From Minisyncoccota bacterium (lineage in GTDB: Bacteria; Patescibacteriota; Minisyncoccia; Phycocordibacterales; UBA9973), in contig DATDXF010000026.1 in NCBI GenBank assembly GCA_036517215.1, forward strand, positions 1-54,583: 54,583 bases of DNA, given 5' to 3'. The position numbers were made by a program, and so were the translations under genes. The notes under the pieces are model-generated. The model searched no databases and was not told where the DNA came from. It saw nothing but the letters and a program-made list of their open reading frames with translations. Of the stretch, positions 7,801 to 54,583 are shown in pieces. How positions within the stretch are numbered: the first letter of the stretch is position 1; each line of letters opens with the position of its first letter.

Positions 7801-8099
7801 TCGGTCCCTACTCGCTCATTACCCAGCAGCCCCTCGGAGGTAAGGCGCAAGGAGGAGGACAGAGATTCGGAGAAATGGAAGTCTGGGCGCTCGAGGGCTA
7901 CGGCGCGGCTTATACGCTTCGTGAAATGCTTACTATCAAGTCTGACGATATCCTCGGCCGTTCGGCTACTTTCGATTCCATTATCAAGAACGAGCCAATC
8001 AGACCGCCGAACTCTCCCGCGTCGTTTAATGTGCTTCTAAATTACCTGAGAGGTCTGGCGCTCGATGTCGATTTAAAAAAATCCGGTCAAAAGGAATAA
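4869..8099 (+). CDS. rpoB: DNA-directed RNA polymerase subunit beta
   Basis: 1076 aa with canonical beta-subunit blocks: GTFIINGVERVIV, HPSHYGRVCPIHTPEGPNIGL, NMQKQAVP, RHGNKGVIS, GGQRFGEMEVWALEGYGAAY. Confidence 0.98.
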   Translation: MQKATSRPKKYFSRYKKPLVEFPNLIEAQVKSFKWLIETGIGEVFKEFSPIIDYSGKKFQLEFTSFSLGESKTDENNSKINKLSYQGLLKARVKLTNKILGTVKEQEIFMSELPLMTPHGTFIINGVERVIVPQLARSFGVFFTESETKGTRYFGAKIIPARGVWIEIESESDGGIYIRIDKKRKFPATALLRAMGYETDEMILKAFSKDPTAEENIKASLAKDGIKSVNDAYIEIYKRLRDGDMATADNAKEFINSLFTPERYDLSPVGRFRFNQRFGKDMGEAEMARRVISKEDLVTVIANIIALNNTPGAKADDIDHLGQRRVRFVGEILQQKVRTGMMQIKRNIQDRMSIIDVDTAMPIAIINQRPLQARIKEFFTTNQLSQFMAQENVLYEIEHLRTLSALGPGGLTRERAGLEVRDVHPSHYGRVCPIHTPEGPNIGLILHLSTYAKINDFGIIETPYAKVKNGKITSEIVYLNALEEEKYNIAHAGIPYDENGKITKDKVEARVKTEPGMIPAEQVDFIDVAPNQAFSIATSMIPFLEHNNANRALMGSNMQKQAVPCVLPEMPLVATGIEELASRDGGRLVIALEDGVVTYLDAKKIVVKGLARKPRPSSYGQGATAEGKSDKEHTYALINFLRNNNFAVFHQRPLVNVGDKVKKGDVLADTSSTVGGQISLGQNIFVAFLSWSGSTYEDAIIISERLVKKSKFTSVYLEEFTCVVRDTKLGPEITTRDIPNVGELKLKDLDEDGIVRIGAEVRENDILVGKITPKGETELTPEERLLRSIFAEKARDVKDTSLRMEHGKRGRIIGVKIFSRDLGHTLEAGIIKKIVIEVAQIRNISVGDKLSGRHGNKGVISMILPEEDMPYTKDGTPVDIILSPLGVPSRMNLGQILEMHLGMAANSLGYQAIVPPFLGAKHEEIREELVKAGLPENGRLKLFDGRTGEAFQQDVAVGYMYMLKLHHMVEDKIHMRSIGPYSLITQQPLGGKAQGGGQRFGEMEVWALEGYGAAYTLREMLTIKSDDILGRSATFDSIIKNEPIRPPNSPASFNVLLNYLRGLALDVDLKKSGQKE
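6707..6748. repeat. G+C-rich imperfect palindromic element embedded in frame in rpoB
   Basis: GCCTCGCCC...CTACGGCCGAGGG. The arms CCTCGCCCGTCTAGC and GGCTACGGCCGAGG can pair. It shares both termini with 11158-11185. Confidence 0.65.
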
Positions 8100-8117
8100 T
8101 CATAAAGAATAAATAAT

Positions 8118-11100
8118 ATGAAAACACTAAACACAACCGAATTTGATTCTATCGCACTCAGGCTCGCCAGCCCCGAGCAGATAAAAGAATGGTCCTTTGG
8201 GGAAGTTACCAAACCCGAAACCATAAACTACAGGACGGGCAGGAGCGAGCGCGGAGGCCTTTTCGACGAGAAAATTTTCGGACCGGAAAAAGACTATGAA
8301 TGTTACTGCGGAAAATACCGACGAATACGCTACAAAGATATCATCTGTGAAAAATGCGGAGTGGAAGTTACCCGCTCAATAGTGCGACGCGAGCGAATGG
8401 GGCACATAGAGCTTTCTACTCCCGTTTCGCATATTTGGTTCTTGCGCGGAGTGCCTTCCAGGATGAGCATTCTCCTCAATATATCCGTTTCCGACCTTGA
8501 GAAAGTCATATATTTTGCCGGGTACATAATCACCAAGGTTCACGAAGAAGAAAAAGAGTCGGTTTTGTCCGGGTTGGATAAGGAATACAAGACCAAACTT
8601 AAAAATTCCGCCGACGATGACACTAGGGAAAAGTTGAAAAACCTCCTGTCTATCACCAAAAAAGAAATAGGCGAAATATATGAAGGAAAAGTCCTGAATG
8701 AAATTTCGTTTCATCACTATTCCCTGAAGTACGGCACTTGTTTCGAAGCCAACATCGGAGCGGAAGCGATATATTCCATCTTTAAGAACCTTGATTTGAA
8801 TAAACTAAAACACCTCACGGAAAAGATGCTTGAAAAGGCGAGTGTGGCTGAAAAAGAAAAACTTCAGAAAAGGCTGTCCTTAATCCGTGCCATGACCTAT
8901 GCGGACATCAGGCCCGAATGGATGTTCCTGACCGTTATTCCGGTTATTCCGCCGGTCTTGCGGCCTATGGTAGCGCTCGACGGGGGCAGGCATGCGACTT
9001 CGGACTTGAACGACCTGTACCGAAGGGTTATCAACAGAAATAACCGCTTAAAGAAACTGAAAGAAATAAATGCTCCGGATGTGATTTTGCGAAACGAAAA
9101 AAGAATCATCCAGGAAGCCGTTGACGCGCTCATAGACAACTCTATTGCCAAGCAGAATGATTCTGCCGCGATGAGCCAGTCCCAGAAACGCCCGCTTAAA
9201 TCTCTCTCGGATAATTTGAAATCAAAGCAAGGATTGTTCAGGCAGAACTTGCTCGGTAAACGTGTGGACTATTCTGGACGTTCCGTCATCGTCGTCGGCC
9301 CCCAGCTCAAATTGAACCAATGCGGACTGCCGAAACACATGGCGCTTGAACTTTTCCGGCCTTTCGTTATTTCGAAAATCCTCCAAGCCGAACTGGCTTT
9401 CAACATCCGCGGAGCCAACAAGCTCATAGAAGAACGAACAAGCGAAGTTTGGGCAATGTTGGAAGAGGTAATCCAGGGTAAATACGTGCTCTTAAACCGC
9501 GCGCCGACGCTTCACCGCCTTGGTATTCAGGCTTTCAACCCAATCCTCATAGAAGGAAATGCTATCCAGGTTCACCCGCTTGTTTGTCAGGCTTTCAACG
9601 CCGACTTCGACGGAGACCAGATGGCAGTATATGTTCCTCTCCTTGAAGAAGCGCAATGGGAAGCGAAAGAACTCATGGCCGCGAATAAAAACCTGCTTAA
9701 GCCGCAGAACGGAGATCCGATAGTGCATCCGAGCAAGGACATAGTGCTCGGCAGTTACTGGATGACAAAATCAGTAGATGGAGAAGAAGGGGAGGGAAAA
9801 TATTTTTCCAGCCCTAACACCGCTATTACCGCTTATGATTACGGAGTGGTGACTCTTCGCGCGAAAATAAAAGTGCTTGCCACAGATTCTCCGAAATACA
9901 GAAAGTTCGGCGGCGGAATATTTGAAACTTCCGTAGGCAAGCTCCTTTTCAACAGCATCCTGCCAAACGACTTTGCTTATGTGAACGACGAAATGATACA
10001 GGACAGGCTTTCGTCTCTACTTGATGAGCTTATCGTGCACAACGGTGTGGATAACACTCCGCCGGTTCTCGACAAGATTAAAGAATTCGGATTCAAATAT
10101 TCCACTATCTCCGGTACGACCTGGGGGCTAGATAACGTTAAGGTTTCTCCCGAGAAGCCAAAAATTATCGCTCAAGGTAAAAAACTAGAAGAAGAAATCA
10201 TAGCCCAGTGGAGCGAAGGTTTGCTTTCGGAAGAAGAAAAGTACCAAAAAATTATTGAAATTTGGACACAAACAAAAAAAGATCTGGAAAAAGTTCTACC
10301 CGGCACTCTTGATAAGAATGGTTCTGCCTATGATTTAATTACTTCTAAAGCAAGGGGTGATATGAGATCTCTAACCCAAATGGTGGGTATGATTGGTCTT
10401 ATTCAGAATAACCAAGGTAAAATTCTGGAATTTCCGATTATCCCTTGTTACCAGGAAGGGCTTTCTCCGATTGAATATTTCGTTATTACCCACGGAGCTC
10501 GTAAGGGAGCATCCGACACCGCTCTTAACACGGCAAAAGCGGGATATTTGACCCGAAGACTCGTAGACGTGGCGCAGGACGTGGTAATCACCGAGGAAGA
10601 CTGCGGTACCAAAGAGGGAAAGATGGTTTCTAGAGAGAATATTTCCGGAATTGAAATTCCTCTTTCCAAGAACATAAGAGGGCGCGTGCTTGCCGGAGAT
10701 TTGAAGGATTCAAGCGGCAAGGTGCTTTACAAGAAAGGATTTCTTATTACCAAGGAAGAAGCCTACAATATTGAAGGAGCAGGATTTACAGAAGTATTTG
10801 TCCGTTCACCTCTTACCTGCAAAACAGTACACGGTCTTTGCGTGATGTGTTACGGTCTTGACCTTGGAAGAAACCGTCTTGTGGAACAAGGGGAGGCTGT
10901 AGGTATCATTGCTGCACAGGCTATCGGTGAACCCGGTACGCAGCTGACTCTCCGAACCTTCCATGCTGGAGGTGTCGCAGGAACAGATATCACCACTGGT
11001 TTGCCTCGTGTTGAAGAAATTTTTGAGCGCAGAATACCAAAAAATCCTGCGATAATTTCCGAAACTGACGGGGAGGTACTCGAAGTCAAAGCCAAAGACG

Positions 11101-39708: not shown

Positions 39709-40503
39709 ATGAAAATAAAATTTTTACTGGCGTTGCTTGCTTTTTCCGTAGGAGGGGTTCTCTATCTGGTATTTTATTACAGCCTGGATCCCGCCCTCCT
39801 TACCAAGCTTTCTTTTTACGCGAACCTGGCGAACCCTTCAGTGCGCATAGTGAAGATACAGGAAGGACTCCGGAAAGAAGAGGTAGCCGACGTTATGGCC
39901 GGAGCTCTAGGTTGGAGCGATAGTGAAGTAAAAGATTTTATAAACATACATCTGGCGCTAAACAGCGCAAACATGGAGGGGCGCTATTTCCCAAAAACCT
40001 ACATGATCAACAAAGACGAAAGCCCTTCCGAGGTTACCGCCACGATGTTCGGTGAATTCTCAAAGCAGACAGGGAAGATAAAAAAACCGGAATCAAAAAA
40101 AGTCATCAACGAAGACACCGTGCTAAAGATAGCTTCCATAATCCAGCGTGAAAGCAACGGCAAAACTGACATGAAACTAATATCGGGGATTATATGGAAC
40201 CGCATTTTTAGCGGGATGAAATTGCAGATAGACGCTACTCTCCAGTATGCAAAAGGAAATGAAGAGGACGGCTGGTGGGAAGAGGTCAAATCCGCGGATA
40301 AAAAAATAAAATCTTCCTACAATACTTACATGCACGCCGGTCTGCCGCCTGCCCCCATAGCCAACCCGGGCCTCTCTGCCATAGAGGCTGCCTATAACCC
40401 GCAAAAAACAAACTGCATTTTTTATCTGCACGACAAAAACAGGCAGATACACTGCACGAAGACTTATGAAGAGCATAAGAAGAATATTAGTATATACTAT
40501 TGA
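39709..40503 (+). CDS. mltG: Endolytic murein transglycosylase MltG (YceG-like)
   Basis: N-terminal TM segment. EGRYFPKTY, ASIIQRESNGKTDM, ISGIIWNRI...LQIDATLQY, YNTYMHAGLPPAPIANPG. Confidence 0.9.
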   Translation: MKIKFLLALLAFSVGGVLYLVFYYSLDPALLTKLSFYANLANPSVRIVKIQEGLRKEEVADVMAGALGWSDSEVKDFINIHLALNSANMEGRYFPKTYMINKDESPSEVTATMFGEFSKQTGKIKKPESKKVINEDTVLKIASIIQRESNGKTDMKLISGIIWNRIFSGMKLQIDATLQYAKGNEEDGWWEEVKSADKKIKSSYNTYMHAGLPPAPIANPGLSAIEAAYNPQKTNCIFYLHDKNRQIHCTKTYEEHKKNISIYY

Positions 40504-45070: not shown

Positions 45071-45673
45071 TTATTCCTCACTTTCCATCCTCTGTCTGCG
45101 TTCATCAAGTGTTTCGCCTTCGTACATCCAATAAGCTGTTCCTTGTGGCATATAATCATAATTAAGTAATTTTTGCGCAGAATTAGATAATCTTGTCGTT
45201 TCTCCATTTAATTCAATAAAACGATTATCTATAACTTTTGCCTTTATATTTTCATCACGACTGAAAACTATTTCTGATCCAGCAGGGATATCAACCATAT
45301 CAAATCTAAAAGGTGGTCTTCTTTCTCGAACCTCATTCAATGCTTTTTGATCTTCTTTGTTTTCCACAATGTCTTTCTTGGGAGTTATGTTTTCTATTTC
45401 CGCTAGTTTTAACGCAGAAACAACTCGCTCTGGATCAATTTTAAAAAACTCTCTTCTTGGATTTATTCTGTTATTATCAAAAGCGTCATGTAACTGATGC
45501 TCGACAAATGCAGAATCTTTTACAGTACAAGCATAAAAACAGGTAAACGGAAGCGGAATACTAGTGGAGGCGCTGAGCTCTTTTATTCTTTGTTCAAAAC
45601 TTGTTGAGGTTTTACCTATTTTTACATATCCCGGCATTGCCTCGTTTGTTAAAATGTAAATAATTTCGATCAT
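45071..45673 (-). CDS. T5orf172 / GIY-YIG-like (MUG113-type) domain protein with an uncharacterised C-terminal domain
   Basis: IIYILTNEAMPGYVKIGKTS...RIKELS...PLPF...LHDAF...RREFF is the T5orf172 pattern. Begins 14 nt after the res stop. Confidence 0.7.
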   Translation of the reverse strand: MIEIIYILTNEAMPGYVKIGKTSTSFEQRIKELSASTSIPLPFTCFYACTVKDSAFVEHQLHDAFDNNRINPRREFFKIDPERVVSALKLAEIENITPKKDIVENKEDQKALNEVRERRPPFRFDMVDIPAGSEIVFSRDENIKAKVIDNRFIELNGETTRLSNSAQKLLNYDYMPQGTAYWMYEGETLDERRQRMESEE

Positions 45674-45687
45674 AGGTTAATTTTATA

Positions 45688-48486
45688 CTATTTTAAAAGA
45701 TTAGTAATAGTAGACTTGACTGTTATTTTTTCAGTTGGAACGATTGCATATCGCCAGGATTTCGCTATCCCGTACTTTCCAACATTTTTTGAAACTAGTT
45801 CGCAATATTTATCTGCTGTTTTCTTCTTCTCTTGCACATCTAGATTATTTATCTCTTCATTTGGTTTTACCTCAATCATTACTATTTCATGTTCAAATTC
45901 AACTACAAAATCTGGTTCATAGCGATGTTGTGAGTTACCAAATTCATCACGCCAGTAAAGGCCCTCAAATTGATTAGGTGCTGGCCTGAGCCAATCTTCC
46001 ACTTCTTCCTCTCTGTCTAAAAGATATGCCATTCGTGCCTCATCAGAAGAATCAAATTTATACATTGAGTGACAAGCTTTCTTGAACCCAGTATAAATTT
46101 TATCTTTTGAAAATCGATCAAGTTGTGATTCTAGTGTAACGGGTTTTTCATCAAAACTTCGAGAAATATTGTATTGCTCTAGATAAGGTTTTGATTCACG
46201 AATACCAGAATCAGAATAATTCTCTAGCTTATATTCTTTATGCATTAATATCTGATCATATATCTCTTTGGCGATTTGACGATAATTATTTTCAACCACC
46301 ATTTTTAAGGCGTTATCATCGCTAACGAATGACTTATAGTGCAGTACTGCTTGATTAGTAAGTTTACGTAACAATTCTGTTTGATTTGGATCATCATAAT
46401 CAACAAGAGGTTCTTCTACAAGAGCAGAAATAATAGTACTTTCTGGACTTTGAGTACGGCCCTCTCCTAAACTTGAGACACGAGTAATCTCAACTTCGCT
46501 ATGCCCTTGGTGGGCCACACCAAACAAATCTTTTTCTTCTTGTCCCTGTAAAGCTTGTTCGAGTATTGAAGTATCTACAGCAAATTTACTTAATTTTTTT
46601 ATATCTAAATCAAAATCATGAATGATAAGCTCACCGTGATCAGGTGTAAGTATTAACCTTGGAATTGGAATATTGCGAATTTCAATAGTTTGTTTAGAAA
46701 TACGCCTAATATTTTCCATTTCCTTTATCGCATTCTCACTAAGCGGATTAAATAAGGACCCCTCTATGTACGGAATATCCTTACTAGCTCCTATTTTATT
46801 TGCTTCATTTTTTGCTGTTGCTTCTAGAATCTCAATTACTTTATTTTGAATTGTCGTTGCCTTTACATCCTCTGGCGTGTCTTCTAAGATTACAGAATTC
46901 GTTGCTTGTTTTGCACGTTCTTCGATTTCCTGCATTATAGCTGGACTAGCTTTAATTTGTTCTTGAATATTAGTTACAAACATTGATTGCACCTCGACAA
47001 CTTCCCTAACTACTTTTATGTCTTGCGTAGAAATACTTTCAATATTTGATGGCTGAATAAGATTAGAATGTCTTGCTTCTTCAATGACTTTCGCGTAGTT
47101 ATCATGAGCAACAATCATTACACGATCAACATTTTTCTTTCCAGTTTTTTCTCCATAAGGTAGACGAAGACCACGACCAATCGTTTGTTCTGTTAGTATC
47201 TCTGATGCAGAAGATCGTATAGGTGCGATAGTGTAAATATTTGTAACATCCCAACCTTCCTTTAACATATTTACGTGGATAACAATTTCTACAATATTAT
47301 CTGGATGTTCAAGTGAAATCAATTTTTCTATGTTTTCATCAGTTTCTTCTCCTGTTGTTTTTGTGTGAACCTTTATAACCTTCCCTTTATAAACCCCACC
47401 TCTAAATTTATCACTATCAATTAAATCAAATAAATCATTAGCATGAGTCGTATCTTTTGCTACTACTAACATTACTGGCTTTACTTTTTCTTTATTATTT
47501 TCAGATGCATATTCTTCGAGTGCTATCTTTGCACGCTCGTGAAAAAAAGCGGCAAGTTGTAGTTTTCGTGCATCAGTATCTATTGAATCCTTATCAAACT
47601 GACTAAAGTCAACATCAGCCTCAGTGCCTACCCATGGATCTTTAACATAACCATCACGAATGGCATTACCAAGATTATATGAGAAAAAAATATTCTTCTT
47701 TGTTTCTGGGTGTTTTTCCTTTCCTTTTCCTACCATATTGCCTGTAAATGGTGTAGCAGTGAATTCAAGCCCAAACAAGGGATCTATGCGATCAAGAGAG
47801 CTCATGGCCGCATCAGCGTGATAGTGGTGTGATTCATCCATAAGTATAACAAGGTCATCTAGAGAACTTAGATATTCAAAATATGATTCTCCCAGTGTTT
47901 CGCTAAATTTTGTAATACCTTTTTCTTTTTCTATATCTTTTTGAGCAAACTGTTGAATATTAAATATATTTATTTCTATTTTATTAGCAAAAAGCGTAGC
48001 CATTTGGTTTTGAATATAATTATCTTTTGTAACTATTTTTACATTTGAAATAGTAAGCTCTTCAATTCCTCGAAAAACATATTTTGGATTATTTGATTTA
48101 CTAAAATCATCTACCAATTTACGATAAATAGTATTACCTGGAGCAACAATCATAAAATGCTGTACACCATAGACAAGATAAAGATAAGCGACAAAAGCAC
48201 CCATAAGGCGAGTTTTTCCTACTCCAGTAGCTAGGGCAAATGTATATGCTGGGAAAGTTCTTTCAAAAGCCTGAAACTGTTTCAGTTCTAGTATCTTTTC
48301 AGTATAATCTTTTGTCGAATCTTCAATATCATTGATATTTTTTTTATTTTTACTCTTCGTCCTCTCCAATATTTTTCTGCCAGCTTCACTCTCTAGATAA
48401 TCAGCAAAAAGTACTAAACTCTTTTCTTGTGGAGTTCGGAGACTCATTGTGTTAATTATATATTGTAGGGCTTGTTCTTTTTTCAT
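45688..48486 (-). CDS. res: Type III restriction enzyme Res subunit (SF2 helicase plus C-terminal PD-(D/E)xK nuclease)
   Basis: ATGVGKTRL (motif I), LVILMDESHHY (motif II), EFTATPF (motif III), QTIGRGLRLPY (motif VI), C-terminal YEPDFVVEF...MIEVKP. ATG at 48486 lies 4 nt after the mod stop; the track start at 48573 overlaps mod. Confidence 0.85.
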   Translation of the reverse strand: MKKEQALQYIINTMSLRTPQEKSLVLFADYLESEAGRKILERTKSKNKKNINDIEDSTKDYTEKILELKQFQAFERTFPAYTFALATGVGKTRLMGAFVAYLYLVYGVQHFMIVAPGNTIYRKLVDDFSKSNNPKYVFRGIEELTISNVKIVTKDNYIQNQMATLFANKIEINIFNIQQFAQKDIEKEKGITKFSETLGESYFEYLSSLDDLVILMDESHHYHADAAMSSLDRIDPLFGLEFTATPFTGNMVGKGKEKHPETKKNIFFSYNLGNAIRDGYVKDPWVGTEADVDFSQFDKDSIDTDARKLQLAAFFHERAKIALEEYASENNKEKVKPVMLVVAKDTTHANDLFDLIDSDKFRGGVYKGKVIKVHTKTTGEETDENIEKLISLEHPDNIVEIVIHVNMLKEGWDVTNIYTIAPIRSSASEILTEQTIGRGLRLPYGEKTGKKNVDRVMIVAHDNYAKVIEEARHSNLIQPSNIESISTQDIKVVREVVEVQSMFVTNIQEQIKASPAIMQEIEERAKQATNSVILEDTPEDVKATTIQNKVIEILEATAKNEANKIGASKDIPYIEGSLFNPLSENAIKEMENIRRISKQTIEIRNIPIPRLILTPDHGELIIHDFDLDIKKLSKFAVDTSILEQALQGQEEKDLFGVAHQGHSEVEITRVSSLGEGRTQSPESTIISALVEEPLVDYDDPNQTELLRKLTNQAVLHYKSFVSDDNALKMVVENNYRQIAKEIYDQILMHKEYKLENYSDSGIRESKPYLEQYNISRSFDEKPVTLESQLDRFSKDKIYTGFKKACHSMYKFDSSDEARMAYLLDREEEVEDWLRPAPNQFEGLYWRDEFGNSQHRYEPDFVVEFEHEIVMIEVKPNEEINNLDVQEKKKTADKYCELVSKNVGKYGIAKSWRYAIVPTEKITVKSTITNLLK

Positions 48487-48490
48487 AGTG

Positions 48491-50095
48491 TTATTCTTCA
48501 GATTCGTTTTCTTCTTCGTCAATTTCTTCCATAGCTCTTTCTTTAATAGGTAGTAAATATTCTTTCTTCCCAAATTGACAAGCTTTTAAAATTGACTGAG
48601 GTATTTTTTTGATAGTAATACGAGCATCTACTTTTTCACATCCAGGTTCGAATTTCTTCGGACAAATAAGAAGTGTTTCGTTTTTACCCAAATGACTCGC
48701 AATCTGTTGAGTCATTGCCACAGAAAGCATTTGTGTAGTTATATAGATACTATTATTGCCTTGACCCTTACCATGTTTCCAGTAGTCAGTAGAGCTTGGA
48801 GAAAAAGTGTAATTAGTAAGTTTACACATAGCACGAATAAGTTTTACATCATTATAGTAGCTATCAATAACTGGATTACCGAATTCGTCAATCACCACAA
48901 AGCTCGGTGCTAGTTCATAAAATTTATAGCCTCCGCCACCTTTCCAATCCAAAATTTCTGAAAGTTTTAACCCATCTTTTCCATCTACTACTTTATCTAA
49001 ACGTACTTTACAATGAGTATAAGCATGATCACCCATTTCAATCCCAATTTGTTTTCTACCCATCTTTTGAGCAACAGCTGAGGTAGTTCCAGAACCAAGA
49101 AATGAATCCAGTACTAAATCCCCAGGCTTTGTAGCAATATCAAGAATACGTTTTATAAGTCGTTCTGGTTTTGGAGTACCGAATGGATCATCAGGAACAA
49201 TTATTTTCATTTCTCCTTTGGCTTCTTGGTTATCTCCTACTTCTTCCCTCGGCCAAATTGTCAGAGGAACAATCCCTTGTTTAACTTCTGAAAGAAACTT
49301 CTTAATTCTTGGTACATTTGACCCATTTTCACCAAACCAAATTCTGTTATCCTTTACTAATTCCTTATAACGATCCATTCCGAACTGCCAACTTCTACCT
49401 TTCGGTGGCCAAAATTTTTTGCCTGTGGGGCCTGTTATCTCATATATACATTTTTCGCTAGGTGTTTTGACTTGCATTGGTTGAGACGCCCAAAGCCCTC
49501 TTGGGTCGTTATCAATATTTTCGTAGCCAATTTCTTCTTCGGGCCTTGGTAGTAAATTCCTTTTCCAGTCAAACTTATTTCTTGCATAAACCAAAATATG
49601 ATCATGATTATCAGAAAACCACTTAGCGTCATTAGCTCTTGTATGCTTCTTTTCCCAAATAACATTTGCTACAAAATTTCCTCTTCCAAAAACTTCGTCA
49701 CATAGTACTTTTAAGTAGTGGGTTTCGTCATCATCAATAGAAATCCAAATACTTCCTTGGTCTGGATGTAAGAGTATCTTTAAAAGTTCCAATCTCGGCT
49801 TCATCAATGAAAGCCATGTGCTATGTTCTACACTATCATCGTAATGCTCAAAGGCATTTCCTGTATTATATGGAGGATCAATATAAATACATTTTACTTT
49901 GCCCTCAAATTCAGGCAATAGTGCTTTGAGGGCAAGTAAATTATCACCATGAATAATCATATTCTCACTATCTTTATCACCATATGACAAATCGGTTCGT
50001 TCTTCTAAAATTCGTGGCTCAATATTAGCAATATCATATTCGGGATTGTTTTTACCTATCCATGTAAGTTCTAGTTTTTGTTTGTTATTGCTCAT
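48491..50095 (-). CDS. mod: Type III-like DNA methyltransferase Mod subunit (N6-adenine/N4-cytosine, beta class)
   Basis: IYIDPPYNTGNAFEHYDD (motif IV) precedes DSFLGSGTTSAVAQKMGRKQIGIEM (motif I). Confidence 0.85.
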   Translation of the reverse strand: MSNNKQKLELTWIGKNNPEYDIANIEPRILEERTDLSYGDKDSENMIIHGDNLLALKALLPEFEGKVKCIYIDPPYNTGNAFEHYDDSVEHSTWLSLMKPRLELLKILLHPDQGSIWISIDDDETHYLKVLCDEVFGRGNFVANVIWEKKHTRANDAKWFSDNHDHILVYARNKFDWKRNLLPRPEEEIGYENIDNDPRGLWASQPMQVKTPSEKCIYEITGPTGKKFWPPKGRSWQFGMDRYKELVKDNRIWFGENGSNVPRIKKFLSEVKQGIVPLTIWPREEVGDNQEAKGEMKIIVPDDPFGTPKPERLIKRILDIATKPGDLVLDSFLGSGTTSAVAQKMGRKQIGIEMGDHAYTHCKVRLDKVVDGKDGLKLSEILDWKGGGGYKFYELAPSFVVIDEFGNPVIDSYYNDVKLIRAMCKLTNYTFSPSSTDYWKHGKGQGNNSIYITTQMLSVAMTQQIASHLGKNETLLICPKKFEPGCEKVDARITIKKIPQSILKACQFGKKEYLLPIKERAMEEIDEEENESEE

Positions 50096-50101
50096 AAATC
50101 A

Positions 50102-53053
50102 TTAAACGATTTTCCAACTGATTGTAAATAATGTTTCCATTTTTGACCTTTGTTTCAATTGAGCCTCTATGGTTTCTAACAACTTCTCTTTTCTGCCTTC
50201 TACCTCATCCTGTGCCTCATATAACTTTTTGCGCATTTCGTTCCTTTTCTTCTCAGAATCCTTTATTACTCGCTGAGCTTTAAGTTTATCATCTAAGTTG
50301 ATAATCTTCTTAGCATTTGTTTTGTCTGTCTTAATATCAATATCAAGCTTTTTTAAATCAAGTTCAAGAGCCTTCTTTACATCATCTGACCAATTGTCTA
50401 GCTTATCTACTTCATCATCAAAAAACTCTCCATTTCTTTCCATAATCTGCTGAGATATTACCGAGATGGTTCGTTGTTCAAGTTCCTCTAATTTATTATA
50501 CTCCTCAGGTGAAAATGTTTTTGGTATAACCGATTGAGCAGAAAGTGAAAACAGCTTTTTTATAATATCTGTTTCTATAGACTCTCCAGCTTCATCGATC
50601 GCAGACACAACTACAGCATCTTCTATTTCAAAAGCTTCAACTGTATAATTTGAAACTTTCAAAATGCCACTTTTACCGACTAATGGTCCCAGTACAGAAA
50701 TTATGGATGAATGATTTGAATAGTCAAAAATAATCTCTGCTCCAACAATCTCTTTGGTTTTTATTTCATTTAAAATTTTCTGCGCTAAAGAATGCCCAGG
50801 TCTATACACGTGAGCATCTTCTACATTTTTACCAATTTTATAGGGACCTGGATCTATGTCCTCGTTTGGAAAAGGGTTATTTTTAAGAGTAAAAGAATAT
50901 CCGTGTTCTGCAAAATCAGCATTATCTCCCAAATAGTAACGAGTAACATCCCATAACCAGCGTTCATATGTATCAAGATAAGCCTGACTCTCTCTTTGGT
51001 TAATTCTTAACTTCTCATGAACTTCAGCATCAAAATTCTCTAGAAGCTTTTGTCTCGTATCGGATAAATTACTTTGAATACTTTCGTCCATTTCTTCTTG
51101 AAGCTTATCAAAAGCAGTATTAATATCTTCGGCTGAACGACATGTCTGATAAATGCCAGCAATACGCTTTTCGAAATCAACACCAGACTCAATAGAACCT
51201 AATACTTCATCACTAGCCCCGAATACGCCTTTAAATAATTTAAATTTCTGATCCAGTAATTCGTAGACACGCTGATCAGCTGCATTTTTTCTGTTAACAA
51301 AATTAATTACAACAACATCATGTTTCTGACCATAACGATGACAACGACCAATACGCTGTTCAATTCGTTGCGGATTCCAAGGTAAATCGTAGTTAATAAC
51401 CAAAGAACAAAATTGTAAATTTACACCTTCTGCTCCAGCTTCAGTAGCAATCATTATTTCTGCTTCATCTCTAAAATATTCAATCAGTGCGGCACGAGTA
51501 TCAGCTGATTTTGAACCAGTTATTTTATCAGTGTCCTTATTTTTTGCTAGCCAGTTTTTATATATTTCTTTAGATTTTTCGTCATTATTTGAACCATTGA
51601 ATAAAACAATTTTATCTTTATAACCACTATTAGCAAGAAGAGTCTCAGCTAGATATCGTTGTGTAATTGTTGATTCAGTAAAAATTATAGCTTTCTTTTT
51701 AGCACCTAGTTCAGCAGTCATTTCAAACCCTTTTTTTAGTGCAATAAGCAAGGCATCTCCCTTGGAGTTAGTATATATTGCTTGTGCGAGATCCCTAAAC
51801 TTTTCTAAATCAGCTTTTTCTTGCTCCATTAATAAAATGTCTTCTTTTGTTAGATCTATCTGCTCTTTCTCCTTTGCATCATTCTCATCTTTCTCTTCAT
51901 CGTCAATCCATTCATCGGATATTTCATCAAAGGCTTCAAAATTTTGTTCAACCCCCGCTGTATCATTGCCTTCATTTGGTATTTTAGCTTTTGTGTCGAC
52001 TATTACTTGATTTAGCTTAAATACTAATTTATCTAAAGTACTCGCGATAGCAAAAGAAGACGATGCTAAAAGTTTACGCAGAATAAGTGTCATAAGTTGT
52101 CGTTGACTAAAAGGAAGAGCGTATAGTCTCGGTCGTTGAAGGTATTCAGACATTCCATCATATAGCTCAACTTCTTGTTCAGTGGGAACATAGTCCTGTG
52201 TTATAGGTTTTCGTTCGGTGTAATTTATATACTCTAAAACTTGTCTACGAAGTGTGCGAATACAAACTGGCTTTAAACGATTGCGTAAATCGACAAACAT
52301 TTCTTGCTTTGGCTCAACAAAACCAACTTCACTTTCGTATATATCTTGCTCACGAGAAACTCGTGCATAATTTGCTTTAAAACTTTTAAGATCACCAAAC
52401 ACATGATCATCAATAATGCTCACAAGACCGTAAAGTTCAAGCAAGGAGTTTTGTAAAGGAGTTGCAGTGAGTAAAATTTTTGGCACTTCGACTAATGCGT
52501 TCTTTATTTCTCGTGCAATCTTGTTCTTTGTTTTATATACATTACGTAGACGATGCGCTTCATCTATGACTGCTAAATCCCATTTTGTCTGTTTTATGTA
52601 TGGAGATTTTGATCGAGCAAAATGATAGGAACAGATAACAATTTTATCTTCCTGGTTAAATGGATTCAAGTTTCCATTTTTTATGTATTGATTAAAAGAT
52701 TTTGCTTCAAGGATTATTGAAGGTAGGAAGAATTTCTCTGAAAGTTCATCATTCCATTGTTTTCGTAAGCTAGAAGGAACGATTAAAAGAATGCTTCTCT
52801 TTCTTTCTGCCCACTTTTGAGATAGGACCAGTCCAGCCTCGATTGTCTTTCCAAGACCAACTTCGTCAGCTAAAATTGCACCCTTTGAGAGTGGAGAACG
52901 GAAAGCGAAAAGGGCCGCCTCAATCTGATGAGGGTTTAAATCAACTTGAGCATTTGATAATGTTGAAGAAAGTTTCTCTAAACTATTAGAAGAGCAGCGT
53001 TTTGTCAGCTCATATGCAAAGTATTTGGCGTGTTGATCGGTGATTTTTACCAT
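50102..53053 (-). CDS. SNF2-family helicase/translocase with a ~350-aa uncharacterised C-terminal region and a coiled-coil tail
   Basis: LADEVGLGKTIEAG, VIDEAHRLRN, LLLTATPLQNSLLELY, DLPWNPQRIEQRIGRCHRYGQ. Stop codon lies 6 nt before the mod start. Confidence 0.85.
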   Translation of the reverse strand: MVKITDQHAKYFAYELTKRCSSNSLEKLSSTLSNAQVDLNPHQIEAALFAFRSPLSKGAILADEVGLGKTIEAGLVLSQKWAERKRSILLIVPSSLRKQWNDELSEKFFLPSIILEAKSFNQYIKNGNLNPFNQEDKIVICSYHFARSKSPYIKQTKWDLAVIDEAHRLRNVYKTKNKIAREIKNALVEVPKILLTATPLQNSLLELYGLVSIIDDHVFGDLKSFKANYARVSREQDIYESEVGFVEPKQEMFVDLRNRLKPVCIRTLRRQVLEYINYTERKPITQDYVPTEQEVELYDGMSEYLQRPRLYALPFSQRQLMTLILRKLLASSSFAIASTLDKLVFKLNQVIVDTKAKIPNEGNDTAGVEQNFEAFDEISDEWIDDEEKDENDAKEKEQIDLTKEDILLMEQEKADLEKFRDLAQAIYTNSKGDALLIALKKGFEMTAELGAKKKAIIFTESTITQRYLAETLLANSGYKDKIVLFNGSNNDEKSKEIYKNWLAKNKDTDKITGSKSADTRAALIEYFRDEAEIMIATEAGAEGVNLQFCSLVINYDLPWNPQRIEQRIGRCHRYGQKHDVVVINFVNRKNAADQRVYELLDQKFKLFKGVFGASDEVLGSIESGVDFEKRIAGIYQTCRSAEDINTAFDKLQEEMDESIQSNLSDTRQKLLENFDAEVHEKLRINQRESQAYLDTYERWLWDVTRYYLGDNADFAEHGYSFTLKNNPFPNEDIDPGPYKIGKNVEDAHVYRPGHSLAQKILNEIKTKEIVGAEIIFDYSNHSSIISVLGPLVGKSGILKVSNYTVEAFEIEDAVVVSAIDEAGESIETDIIKKLFSLSAQSVIPKTFSPEEYNKLEELEQRTISVISQQIMERNGEFFDDEVDKLDNWSDDVKKALELDLKKLDIDIKTDKTNAKKIINLDDKLKAQRVIKDSEKKRNEMRKKLYEAQDEVEGRKEKLLETIEAQLKQRSKMETLFTISWKIV

Positions 53054-53142
53054 ATTTCATATCATTTTTAATAGAGTCCAAATAAAAACTTCATAAAATA
53101 TAACACTTTTTAAGCTTTAAAACAATGGTATAATCCTTAATA

Positions 53143-53394
53143 ATGTATTACCTTTATATTCTTAAATGCGCTGATAAGACTCTTTATACTGGCATCACCA
53201 CAGATTTAAAGCGCAGAGTTATTGAACACAACAGTGGTAAATTAGGTGCAAAGTATACATCTTCTAGGCGACCTGTTAAAATGGTTTATTCCAAAAAGTT
53301 TAAGGACAGGTCAGTTGCCTCCAAGGAAGAAGCTAGGATTAAAAAGCTGAAGAGAAGTAAGAAATTAGAATTAATCAAAGCCAATGGATCATAA
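53143..53394 (+). CDS. GIY-YIG (URI) domain protein, UPF0213/YhbQ-like
   Basis: YYLYILKCADKTLYTGITTDLKRRVIEHNSG...RPVKMVY...A.KEEARIKKL. Extended -10 TGGTATAAT lies upstream. Confidence 0.8.
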   Translation: MYYLYILKCADKTLYTGITTDLKRRVIEHNSGKLGAKYTSSRRPVKMVYSKKFKDRSVASKEEARIKKLKRSKKLELIKANGS

Positions 53395-53557
53395 ATTACC
53401 GCTAAAAGCACATAAGGAGTTAAAAGAAATTCTGCGAAAACAATTCAAGGGTAAATATCCTGAAGAATTGATTGATGATCTAGGTTTAACCTTTCTTAAT
53501 CTATCAGTAATTGCCCTTAAAAGAAAAAACAGAAAAAGTAGGCTGAGTGTAGTATAA
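53384..53557 (+). CDS. Possible small ORF (57 aa), below the ORF-track length cutoff
   Basis: The ATG overlaps the GIY-YIG stop (ATGGATCATAA). MDHKLPLKAHKELKEILRKQFKGKYPEELIDD... No homology recognised. Confidence 0.25.
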   Translation: MDHKLPLKAHKELKEILRKQFKGKYPEELIDDLGLTFLNLSVIALKRKNRKSRLSVV

Positions 53558-53610
53558 CTAGATTAGTATTTTTTATAAAATTATGTTATAATGTATCTAC
53601 AACTGAATAG

Positions 53611-53718
53611 TTTGTATCAAGAGTGGCGGTAGAGAATTGGCTCAGTGACCCCACAGCAACCTGCAATTGCAAGGTGCTAAATCCAACCAGACACACAAGT
53701 GTCAGGAAAGATAAGTTT
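53611..53718 (+). promoter_or_regulatory. SAM-I (S-box) riboswitch aptamer
   Basis: TATCAAGAG-TGGCGG...AGTGA...GCAACC-TGCAATTGCAAGG-TGCTAAATCC-AACCAGACACACAAGTGTCAGG-AAAGATAAG matches the S-box core (P1 TATC/GATA, J1/2 AAGAG, k-turn UGA, GCAACC, GUGCUAAAUCC, GAAAGAUAAG). Loop UUGGC can pair with GCUAA (pseudoknot). Extended -10 TGTTATAAT at 53584-53592. Confidence 0.8.
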
Positions 53719-53737
53719 ACGTCTAGTCCACGTGAAA

Positions 53738-53769
53738 ATCTTTCCTCTTTATTAGAGGATTTTTATTTT
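53738..53769 (+). terminator. Riboswitch expression platform: intrinsic terminator with a competing antiterminator
   Basis: TCCTCT-TTATT-AGAGGA plus TTTTTATTTT. AGGAAAGAT (53704-53712, 3' side of P1) is the exact complement of ATCTTTCCT (53738-53746, 5' side of the terminator). Confidence 0.65.
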
Positions 53770-54027
53770 ATGGGGAAAATACCAGAAGGTTTAATTAAGT
53801 GTGGAGCGTGTGGGGAGTATAAAGGTAAAGTAATAGAAGATGACGAAGAAGGGTATATTGGCGTATCTTGTCTTTGTGATGGTATTCCATGCCCTAAATG
53901 TAAAATCAATAAAATTCATAGGCCGATATCAAATTCTTATGATGAGATCAATAATAGTATCGGACACTGGCCATATTTTTCAGGAATGATGCCATGTAAT
54001 GAGTGTAAAAACATTAAAAAAGAATAA
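53770..54027 (+). CDS. Small Cys-rich zinc-ribbon-like protein (85 aa)
   Basis: ATG at 53770, directly after the terminator. CGAC, CLC, CPKC and CNEC motifs. The track ORF start at 53623 is a GTG inside the riboswitch and is rejected. Confidence 0.55.
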   Translation: MGKIPEGLIKCGACGEYKGKVIEDDEEGYIGVSCLCDGIPCPKCKINKIHRPISNSYDEINNSIGHWPYFSGMMPCNECKNIKKE

Positions 54028-54031
54028 ACAT

Positions 54032-54433
54032 ATGAAAAAAATAACAATACTTTCAAAATCTGAGGTAAAGAAAATAGATTCAAGTTATGTTCGTGGTGTA
54101 GATAAGTGGCGCAGAATGTATGCTGGGGTAGCTTCTAATTTAGAAAGATATGAAAAAGACATCATTTATCTAAAGATAGAAAATACAGAAAAACAATTTC
54201 CTTCAGACTATGGAACTGCGCTGAAGATTGCTAAAAGTTGGAAAGAATTCAATAAAGAATTGCGTAATGCTAAAGGGTTTACAGTTTCTTTTTATAGTAC
54301 TAAATCAACTGGCTTTGTGCTTAATCATGAGGACATAAAAGATGAAGATAAAATCAAACAAGTAGTAGAAGAACTTAAATCAGCAGGAAAACAAAAATCA
54401 GAACGTATAAGTACTTTTCCTGGGTTTCTTTAG
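54032..54433 (+). CDS. Hypothetical protein (133 aa)
   Basis: ATG at 54032, 4 nt after the upstream stop, so probably co-transcribed. No family recognised. Confidence 0.5.
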   Translation: MKKITILSKSEVKKIDSSYVRGVDKWRRMYAGVASNLERYEKDIIYLKIENTEKQFPSDYGTALKIAKSWKEFNKELRNAKGFTVSFYSTKSTGFVLNHEDIKDEDKIKQVVEELKSAGKQKSERISTFPGFL

Positions 54434-54583
54434 TATTTGCAACTAAGCGTCTGCGGGCAAGACCGCAAAAACATAATTCGCATTTACAAGACAAACCACG
54501 AAAGAAACATATGTCCAAACATAGATATACGCATACAACAAGAAAATGGGATATCGGGACCAAGTAAAAAAGGTAGCACCAAG

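Follow-up and report, generated by a model that had tools for sequence, protein, structure and literature searches.

The stretch of DNA analysed here, called the window throughout, is the 54,583-nucleotide contig DATDXF010000026.1 of a Minisyncoccota bacterium. Towards its right end, on the minus strand, a gene for a SNF2-family ATPase is followed by the two genes of a type III restriction-modification (R-M) pair, the methyltransferase Mod and the endonuclease Res, and then by a gene for a small nuclease-like protein of the T5orf172 family. SNF2-Mod-Res is a real three-gene module whose order goes far beyond chance, as the same gene order is found in every informative related locus. We propose that it is a three-component type III-style R-M system in which SNF2 aids interference, with T5orf172 as an optional passenger, and we put the probability of this reading at about 0.65. 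Gene order, domains, motif conservation, synteny and partner exchange were computed; the association of the proteins, the translocase activity and the step that is aided are what we infer. The genes, and the part of SNF2 that is discussed separately, are as follows.

50102..53053, minus strand: first gene, SNF2-family ATPase, DrmD/RapA-like by sequence, 983 amino acids (aa), conserved partner of type III Mod-Res
50105..50983, minus strand: C-terminal module of SNF2, aa 691-983, with a beta-rich domain, a coiled-coil hairpin and a terminal strand
48491..50095, minus strand: second gene, type III Mod, predicted beta-class N6-adenine DNA methyltransferase, 534 aa
45688..48486, minus strand: third gene, type III-like Res, predicted SF2 helicase-like ATPase with a C-terminal PD-(D/E)xK endonuclease, 932 aa counted from ATG
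45071..45673, minus strand: fourth gene, T5orf172 (GIY-YIG superfamily) nuclease-like protein, 200 aa, with a small C-terminal DNA-binding-like domain

The linkage was followed from the side of SNF2 and from the side of Res. A SNF2-centred scan, with one genome per species, gave 78 loci with SNF2 relatives at 47-92% identity, and 48 of these were informative, in that SNF2 is full-length and the sequence continues for 6 kb or more downstream of it. SNF2, Mod and Res stand in this order on the same strand in all 48. The spacing between SNF2 and Mod is 30 nucleotides (nt) or less in 21 of them and more than 400 nt of extra genes in 23. The hosts are Patescibacteria, Gamma-, Alpha- and Deltaproteobacteria, Bacteroidota, Planctomycetes, Omnitrophota, Chlamydiales, Melainabacteria and others. 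On plasmids, all 23 PLSDB records with a full-length Res relative have SNF2 and a methyltransferase upstream (22 were checked directly, and a second Roseomonas record was added from the organism tally); the genes are labelled 'SNF2-related protein' and 'site-specific DNA-methyltransferase', for example on Salmonella IncFIB plasmids. When open reading frames (ORFs) of at least 200 aa from 164 loci were grouped into families, the most widespread were Res (129 loci), Mod (128) and SNF2 (108), and the next family reached at most 14; since only three families are broadly conserved, these loci have no hidden DrmA/B/C-like partner. An earlier note on this DNA had kept chance juxtaposition as a possible explanation and had proposed to look at the neighbourhoods of SNF2 homologues for type III linkage. 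With Mod and then Res after SNF2 in 48 of 48 genome loci, and with the 23 of 23 plasmid records, SNF2 is not a chance neighbour.

One plasmid locus has another form. On Thioclava sp. plasmid p5 (NZ_CP149930.1; locus L086, 5319-9020), a 1233-aa 'SNF2-related protein' is found with no separate Mod or Res gene, and its C-terminal ~300 residues match aa 604-930 of the window's Res (2e-27), the nuclease-containing part. Either a deletion has joined SNF2 to the tail of Res here, or the protein is a natural SNF2-nuclease fusion.

Seen from Res, the association is looser. Among 80 Res-centred metagenome loci, collected by Res alignment, SNF2 is present in 35 and absent from 26, and 19 were not judgeable; a SNF2-less call required at least 1.5 kb upstream of Mod. 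A rough neighbour-joining tree was built from 133 Res proteins. In it, a single clade unites 17 of the 26 SNF2-less loci and the other nine are scattered; for at least one of the scattered cases the call is a false negative, as 4.3 kb of embedded genes separate SNF2 from Mod there (L102 compared with L101). The window's own Res clade is wholly SNF2-linked. ORF clustering gave no conserved family upstream of Mod in the SNF2-less loci, and because no substitute gene stands there, these loci are taken to be truly without SNF2. Two ORFs of ~900 aa that were considered as a substitute helicase are an Ile-tRNA synthetase and a UvrD-nuclease. The two tests together establish that the dependence is one-way: SNF2 is always accompanied by Mod-Res, and Mod-Res can lack SNF2. 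The earlier note had counted it as a refutation if homologous Mod/Res pairs usually lack the SNF2 and T5orf172 neighbours; SNF2 is lacking in 26 of 61 judgeable metagenome loci, mostly of one clade, and T5orf172 is lacking after Res in 47 of the 48 SNF2-centred loci.

By its architecture and by Mod, the Mod-Res pair is assigned to type III R-M, while Res fails the sequence test against characterised enzymes. Mod carries DPPY at aa 73-76 and FxGxG near aa 332, as expected of a PF01555-type Mod; it matches Pfam N6_N4_Mtase (PF01555) at 4.7e-47 and PADLOC MTase_III PDLC03636 at 5.6e-166, and among solved type III Mods its PDB sequence matches are 6k0w (3.4e-48) and EcoP15I Mod 4zcf_A (1.7e-36). 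Res lies directly downstream of mod with a gap of 4 nt and has the architecture of a type III enzyme, with Pfam matches to ResIII (3.6e-20), Helicase_C and, at aa 839-896, Tn7_TnsA-like_N (5e-07), and a PADLOC match to REase_III PDLC03648 (6e-128). Its motifs GVGKT (88-92), DExH (217-220) and D859/E872/K874 are invariant among 13 diverse homologues. The mechanical ORF opens at TTG 48573; homologues align from residue 1 of the ATG form. Res has no PDB sequence match at E<=0.01, and with NF012027, the type III endonuclease model of NCBIfam, it reaches 53.9 bits where the cut-off is 564, so orthology to EcoP15I/StyLTI is not supported; by sequence, the window's Res belongs to a lineage far from EcoP15I Res.

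The SNF2 protein is a DrmD homologue and not a DrmD equivalog, because both DrmD cut-offs are missed and the profile match is partial. Its Pfam matches are SNF2-rel_dom (9e-35) and Helicase_C (2.7e-21). The top PADLOC match is DrmD PDLC02619 (2e-210), where aa 30-699 cover profile positions 24-658 of 872; BrxHI/BrxHII and HmaA match more weakly (HmaA 1.8e-54, far below DrmD). Against the NCBIfam models, SNF2 scores 700 bits with DISARM_DrmD_b (NF038318, cut-off 950, profile positions 21-657 of 868 only), 256 bits with DrmD (NF038317, cut-off 610) and 176 bits with RapA (cut-off 576). The helicase motifs that the earlier note had read are present, namely GLGKT at 66-70, DEAH at 164-167 and QRIGRCHRYGQ at 566-576, and Walker A, DEAH and motif VI are invariant in an alignment of 77 homologues. 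In the AlphaFold2 model, with a mean predicted local distance difference test score (pLDDT) of 72.9, a two-lobed core starts near residue 30 and contains a disordered acidic insert (359-399); then follow a helical linker (~600-711, parts of it with low confidence) and a beta-rich domain that is modelled confidently (712-844), and the chain finishes with a long antiparallel coiled-coil hairpin (849-966) and a closing strand (969-982). Of the ~350-aa unknown domain with a coiled-coil tail described previously, the coiled coil stands, and the unknown part resolves into the linker and the beta-rich domain. Pfam and the model give no nuclease or other effector domain. The best Foldseek match is E. 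coli RapA (E 5e-27, ~1050 aligned columns, TM 0.41-0.51), which is also the best PDB sequence match of the ATPase lobes.

The C-terminal module sets this SNF2 apart. It lies outside the coverage of the DrmD profile, where the match ends at about position 658 of 872, and residues 690-983 are modelled at a pLDDT of about 80-90. A phmmer search with the C-terminal 293 residues against 1.84 billion representatives gave 1567 matches at E<=1e-3 and 783 at E<=1e-10. Among the best 150 matches listed, the match almost always ends at the protein C-terminus, and the full-length proteins are ~940-1045 aa. This pattern of matches indicates that the module defines, and is confined to, a large SNF2 subfamily. 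It is likely that the module serves as an adaptor to the Mod-Res complex.

The partners of SNF2 are exchanged. This SNF2 family occurs upstream of Mod/Res genes from at least four type III lineages of PADLOC: PDLC03636/03648, to which the window and Salmonella plasmids belong; PDLC03646/03654, on E. coli pEC316_2 and, from SNF2 matches, apparently also on Klebsiella plasmids related to it; PDLC03634/03647 in L012, where Res is similar to EcoP15I Res over its full length (2.4e-53); and PDLC03638 in L076. SNF2 is 75-90% identical across candidate-phyla bacteria, Gammaproteobacteria, Planctomycetes and Bacteroidota (L006-L020 included), with Res at ~38%. In L003 and L031, both SNF2 proteins are ~90% identical to that of the window, C-terminal module included, and the Res proteins are 80% and 38% identical, respectively; between these two loci, no co-variation of the module with the Res clade is visible. 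The incongruence of SNF2 and Res points to modular exchange of partners, and near-identical SNF2 with differing Mod-Res would imply that the genes have recently passed between phyla and recombined at the SNF2/Mod junction or close to it. Of 5426 complete E. coli genomes, only 2 hold the pEC316_2 variant of the module; SNF2-Mod-Res is common in nature and rare in E. coli. A search for phage carriage gave only one partial match in ~50,700 phage records, so phages carry it hardly at all.

Within the Res gene of pEC316_2 (L082, 15159-18521), a 298-bp piece (query 8092-8389) recurs at 99.7% identity on more than 150 E. coli plasmids under the label 'DUF1158 domain-containing protein'. It looks like a widespread remnant or a mis-annotated shared segment.

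In about half of the loci, other genes, including defence genes, are embedded between SNF2 and Mod; cargo is also found in the gap between Mod and Res or just downstream. It includes the PADLOC candidates Bro-N (PDC-S13), RhuM (PDC-S05), YhcG (PDC-S02) and PDC-S06, as well as Schlafen-AlbA_2 proteins, LmuB-like ATPases, AbiD, SoFic, GajA, Cas4-like nucleases and DUF2779. Embedded defence cargo has been reported for type I R-M, BREX, DISARM and Hma (bioRxiv 10.1101/2024.01.29.577857). The SNF2-type III operon is another embedding host, which behaves like BREX, DISARM and type I R-M. In Aeromonas media pE31A (L171, 7985-9753), an AAA ATPase and DUF4276 pair lies between SNF2 and Mod, and an insertion sequence element lies between Mod and Res, so that the operon tolerates much insertion. 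Small genes also overlap the start of SNF2: a helix-turn-helix (HTH) gene on proteobacterial plasmids (L081, 6232-6432; L082, 8769-9014) and instead a WYL-domain gene in the Aeromonas locus (L171, 4225-5136). The position suggests that the gene overlapping the SNF2 start on plasmids is a controller-type regulator. In the window, no HTH or controller ORF is found upstream of SNF2.

Partner exchange and cargo bring up the possibility that we are looking at two independent systems, a plain type III R-M beside a stand-alone SNF2 defence or maintenance gene that prefers this neighbourhood. Mod-Res relatives without SNF2 exist, the trees of SNF2 and Res are incongruent and partners are swapped, and unrelated cargo often sits between SNF2 and Mod. 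Operons of R-M, BREX, DISARM and Hma host embedded independent systems, and single-gene SNF2 defence is known from HmaA, which has a nuclease domain (PMC11232893). True cargo, however, is diverse and sporadic (at most 14 of 164 loci per family) and is found alone elsewhere, whereas the SNF2 family always comes with same-strand downstream Mod-Res, in the 48 of 48 loci and on plasmids, and its position 5' of Mod is constant. In addition, the window's SNF2 has no nuclease or other effector domain with which to act alone. We therefore regard two independent systems as quite unlikely.

How could a SNF2 ATPase serve a type III system? In the type III paradigm, Mod recognises and methylates short asymmetric sites, and Res is loaded by Mod on unmodified DNA, is brought by ATP into a sliding state and cuts when complexes meet. 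Here, Mod would be the N6-adenine methylase that marks host sites and supplies sequence recognition, and Res would be loaded by Mod on unmethylated invader DNA as an ATP-switched slider that cuts on collision of complexes. SNF2 is predicted to be an active RapA/DrmD-like translocase or remodeller of double-stranded DNA, and it may dock on Mod-Res, or on neighbouring DNA, via the C-terminal beta-domain and the coiled coil. We propose one or more of the following possibilities: First, SNF2 could drive or reposition Mod-Res complexes by ATP. Second, it could strip DNA-bound proteins. Third, by analogy with RapA and stalled RNA polymerase, it could release Mod-Res complexes that have become stuck on DNA, so that they can be used again. 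Any such action would give higher efficiency or breadth of restriction.

The interference side is favoured because SNF2 is needed for defence in the ARMADA II, DISARM and ietH systems. ArmA, the SNF2 protein of ARMADA II, is essential there (PMC13463889); deletion of drmD and drmMI nearly removes the protection of class 1 DISARM against phage Nami (bioRxiv 10.1101/2021.12.28.474362); and mutants of the DrmD-like ietH in Walker A and DEAH abolish protection (PMC13069673). It is also conceivable that SNF2 works on the modification or regulatory side, where it would aid methylation by Mod, temper Res in a naive host, or control expression. As this argument runs, SNF2 always neighbours the methylase gene, and the SNF2-methylase pair recurs in DISARM class 1, ARMADA, BREX type 3 and Hma/BR. 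In addition, the high mobility of the module (plasmids, low-GC islands, 75-90% identity across phyla) makes establishment in new hosts a real problem. Two points make a modification-side role unlikely in our view. In related systems, the loss of SNF2 abolishes defence rather than causing toxicity, and the methylases of these systems are PglX-like whereas Mod here is of PF01555, which leaves an analogy without methylase homology.

Several observations weigh against a three-component system with an interference-side SNF2, and they are set out together here. Classical EcoP15I and EcoP1I need no SNF2 partner, and one Mod-Res clade exists without SNF2; from both it follows that SNF2 is not mechanistically required for type III restriction as such. 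Unrelated genes part SNF2 from Mod in about half of the loci. The incongruence of SNF2 and Res argues against a tightly co-evolved interface and fits equally well with SNF2 acting on DNA alone; contact of SNF2 with Mod or Res is what we infer, and the choice of interference over methylation control is drawn by analogy. The locus sets were seeded on SNF2 or Res by pattern scans, which makes their frequencies indicative rather than an unbiased census. Finally, all matching contigs end 1.5 kb upstream of SNF2, and partners further upstream are possible in this genome.

A stronger form of the proposal goes further than an aiding role. SNF2-Mod-Res could be a distinct and widespread ATP-dependent restriction class, in which SNF2 is an integral third subunit that alters target finding or cutting, and this minimal system could be the ancestral or simplest context of the SNF2-methylase pair. 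As an integral subunit, SNF2 might turn passive sliding into directed translocation or relax the rule of two inverted sites; it might also strip proteins that protect phage DNA or recycle stuck complexes. We hold this idea only tentatively, as a possibility that is less probable than its opposite.

Returning to the proposed three-component system, the fourth gene is best read, from the distribution of its relatives, as a facultative passenger that is separate from the other three. The T5orf172 domain (PF10544) is matched at 1.7e-17, with 64.2 bits against a Pfam cut-off of 20, and the protein corresponds to PADLOC PDC-S57 (PDLC05041, 1.3e-72, aa 3-198 on profile positions 6-208 of 212), a profile with no curated cut-off. 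Its AlphaFold2 model has a pLDDT of 89.6. Foldseek matches are weak (CcrM at E 2.5e-3, the GIY-YIG of Slx1 at E 0.16-0.4); the C-terminal half has no Pfam match even at E<=1 and only the weak CcrM-like match in Foldseek. PHROG matches include homing endonucleases.

The earlier note had taken T5orf172 as a component, and an obligate four-gene system, with T5orf172 as a second nuclease effector beside SNF2-Mod-Res, has some points in its favour. The gene follows Res after 14 nt on the same strand with no terminator detected, the same arrangement occurs in L066 with a T5orf172 that is 69% identical, and the predicted GIY-YIG fold appears intact in the model. L066 is, however, the only one of 48 related loci with T5orf172 after Res, and it is absent from this place in the other 47. 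Relatives at 79-89% identity are found in four contexts, namely behind a type III pair that lacks SNF2, behind a type III system in which SIR2-HerA is embedded, behind a ResIII+Eco57I enzyme, and alone among housekeeping genes. Elsewhere, the downstream slot is filled by other nucleases, such as Cas4-like PD-(D/E)xK proteins or DUF2779. On this neighbourhood evidence, T5orf172 is rejected as a core component and an obligate four-gene system is very unlikely. The view that the operon is an expanded methylation-based system rather than a plain R-M thus holds for SNF2-Mod-Res and fails for T5orf172.

T5orf172 may be an independently mobile small GIY-YIG-type nuclease, either a stand-alone defence candidate (PDC-S57) or a homing-endonuclease-like element at the 3' ends of R-M operons. 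Its recurrent 3' position hints at targeted insertion, as by a homing endonuclease, or at a shared accessory role. In L167-L169, from candidate-phyla genomes, close relatives lie near the 3' ends of differing R-M operons; in L167 and L168, two small genes without a domain match are found between the upstream R-M or defence genes and T5orf172. PADLOC candidates of this kind (PDCs) were picked out because they lie embedded within BREX, DISARM and type I R-M systems (Payne et al., bioRxiv 10.1101/2024.01.29.577857), and no functional test of PDC-S57 was found in the literature.

The four co-oriented genes, with gaps of 6, 4 and 14 nt in the order SNF2, Mod, Res and T5orf172, agree exactly with the coordinates given previously. 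A scan found no strong terminator-like site within the four-gene stretch, which is weak evidence in AT-rich DNA and is compatible with a single transcript; the gene spacing suggests one transcript with translational coupling. The operon seems to sit in an acquired island, since GC drops from ~0.46 to ~0.34 right after a YceG-like gene (39709-40503) and stays low from ~40.5 kb to the window end at 54583. No transfer RNA gene or flanking direct repeats are seen at the island boundary visible in the window. Nine public contigs carry an identical SNF2 and all end ~1.5 kb upstream of it, which places the upstream boundary of the island beyond the visible sequence. The closest named relatives are Patescibacteria. 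Upstream of the operon and downstream of T5orf172, the low-GC island contains the following.

53054..53142, no strand: AT-rich intergenic region, 89 nt, between SNF2 and the divergent 83-aa GIY-YIG gene
within 53143-54433, plus strand: stand-alone GIY-YIG protein, 83 aa (5.7e-17)
within 53143-54433, plus strand: cysteine-rich ORF with several CxxC pairs, 134 aa
within 53143-54433, plus strand: ORF with no family match, 144 aa
40730-44077, minus strand: second cluster of four genes, 267, 420, 187 and 216 aa, with gaps of 46, 15 and 5 nt

The 89-nt region is the probable promoter region of the operon, judging from its position; promoter-like matches in it are no more than expected from shuffled sequence, and promoter and terminator scans are uninformative in AT-rich DNA. 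The small genes at 53143-54433 lie within 1.5 kb upstream of SNF2 and are divergent from the operon, and a relative of the 144-aa ORF (50% identity) is found downstream of Res in L024. The second tight cluster lies in the same island, ~1 kb downstream of T5orf172, and just upstream of it is a promoter-like site (44150-44122) that, with 11 of 12 matches, is the best in the region. Its four genes have no match in Pfam, PADLOC, NCBIfam or PHROGs, are singleton clusters at 90% and are absent from all related loci; they could be an uncharacterised defence or mobile-element cassette. No phase-variable repeats are found in the window's mod.

Type III R-M is treated as a closed paradigm of two proteins. 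A conserved third motor protein, found from candidate phyla to conjugative plasmids of Salmonella, Klebsiella and E. coli, would extend this paradigm by a further layer. SNF2 ATPases beside methylases are needed for defence in DISARM, ARMADA and ietHAS, with no mechanism given (PMC13463889, bioRxiv 10.1101/2021.12.28.474362, PMC13069673), and BREX type 3 and Hma carry a similar helicase, for which a mechanism is likewise not given. SNF2-Mod-Res offers a simple study case, since this kind of ATPase is found here on the smallest and best understood chassis, with three genes, the known biochemistry of type III enzymes and versions in culturable hosts. If SNF2 is indeed an integral third subunit, the system would reveal the job of the SNF2-methylase pair in DISARM, ARMADA, BREX-3 and Hma. 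A further type of embedding-host operon would also be useful for discovery by guilt-by-embedding.

Annotation would improve as well. A literature search found no description or name for SNF2 with type III Mod/Res; the nearest text found says in general terms that SWI2/SNF2 ATPases of bacteria have diversified within systems like R-M (PMC3417536). Public annotation gives 'SNF2-related protein', 'site-specific DNA-methyltransferase' and 'DEAD/DEAH box helicase'. The earlier note had allowed that tools might assign the four genes to an already named system. The tools would label them piecemeal, as RM type III, an orphan DrmD-like match and PDC-S57, and loci of this kind are now split into 'RM type III' and an orphan DrmD-like match.

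Compared with the classical type III enzymes (EcoP15I and EcoP1I, Mod2Res1-2), the window's system has mod immediately 5' of res, a Mod of the beta-class N6-adenine methylases, and a Res made of an SF2 ATPase and a C-terminal PD-(D/E)xK nuclease; the system partnered by SNF2 in L012 is itself EcoP15I-like. In contrast to the classical systems, a conserved SNF2 gene stands 5' here, the window's Res is too diverged to match EcoP15I Res by sequence, and the operon often hosts embedded defence cargo.

Class 1 DISARM is the nearest in its leading gene. Both begin with a DrmD-homologous SNF2 (~700 bits over ~650 residues with DrmD_b), followed directly by an N6-adenine methylase, with a methylation-based logic of self and non-self. 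The likeness of SNF2 plus methyltransferase to DISARM DrmD, pointed out previously, is genuine homology, as the top PADLOC and NCBIfam matches are DrmD models. The differences are that the window has no DrmA, DrmB (DUF1998) or DrmC (PLD), that Mod is of PF01555 and DrmMI of PF13659, and that SNF2 has its own C-terminal module and the effector is a type III Res. One might think of a truncated class 1 DISARM or ARMADA, partly outside the window, with DrmA/B/C past the contig end: the best SNF2 profile matches are the DrmD models, and the window stops only 1.5 kb upstream of SNF2. Nevertheless, SNF2 stays below both DrmD cut-offs (700 bits where 950 are required, 256 where 610 are required) and its C-terminal third is unmatched, the methylase is of the wrong family, and in class 1 the core genes follow drmD-drmMI, where here Res occupies that place. 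Small plus-strand genes occupy the 1.5 kb upstream of SNF2, where the window stops. As the earlier note had stated for the window, DrmA/B/C are not among its genes from 40.7 to 54.4 kb; the 164 related loci, taken with flanks up to 10 kb, share no conserved family of the DUF1998, PLD or YprA-like kind. A truncated system is thus highly improbable, and membership of DISARM is rejected on the absence of DrmA/B/C, the methylase family and the missed cut-offs.

ARMADA, BREX type 3 and Hma (the DUF499-centred BR) share with SNF2-Mod-Res a RapA/BrxHII-like SNF2 adjoining a DNA methylase, and Hma also carries embedded genes. They differ in that YprA-like ArmC, UvrD-like ArmD, the DUF499/BrxC ATPase, PglZ and BrxA/B were not detected here, that the methylase is a type III Mod here and PglX-like there, and that the predicted SNF2 structure has no N-terminal Tudor domain. 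Membership was rejected for each: for ARMADA, neither the window nor the related loci hold a YprA-like DUF1998 ArmC, a PglX-like ArmB or an ArmD; for Hma/BR, there is no match to a DUF499 ATPase (HmaC); and for BREX-3, none of its other components was found in the window or the 164 related loci.

RapA, the Swi2/Snf2 ATPase that recycles RNA polymerase in E. coli, resembles SNF2 most closely in structure, with an alignment that spans almost all of SNF2. Sequence identity is ~17%, the N-terminal Tudor domains of RapA are missing from SNF2, and RapA is at a housekeeping locus whereas SNF2 is in a mobile R-M operon. As for the PDCs, T5orf172 matches PDC-S57 over its full length and sister loci carry PDC-S13, S05, S02 and S06; these candidates were derived from BREX, DISARM and type I R-M, and the host here is a type III R-M with SNF2. 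Taken together, and judged at the level of sequence, SNF2-Mod-Res resembles DISARM, ARMADA, Hma and BREX-3 only in having a RapA-like SNF2 beside a methylase. Type III Mod-Res itself was already known; SNF2 as its regular third gene is described in no paper that was found.

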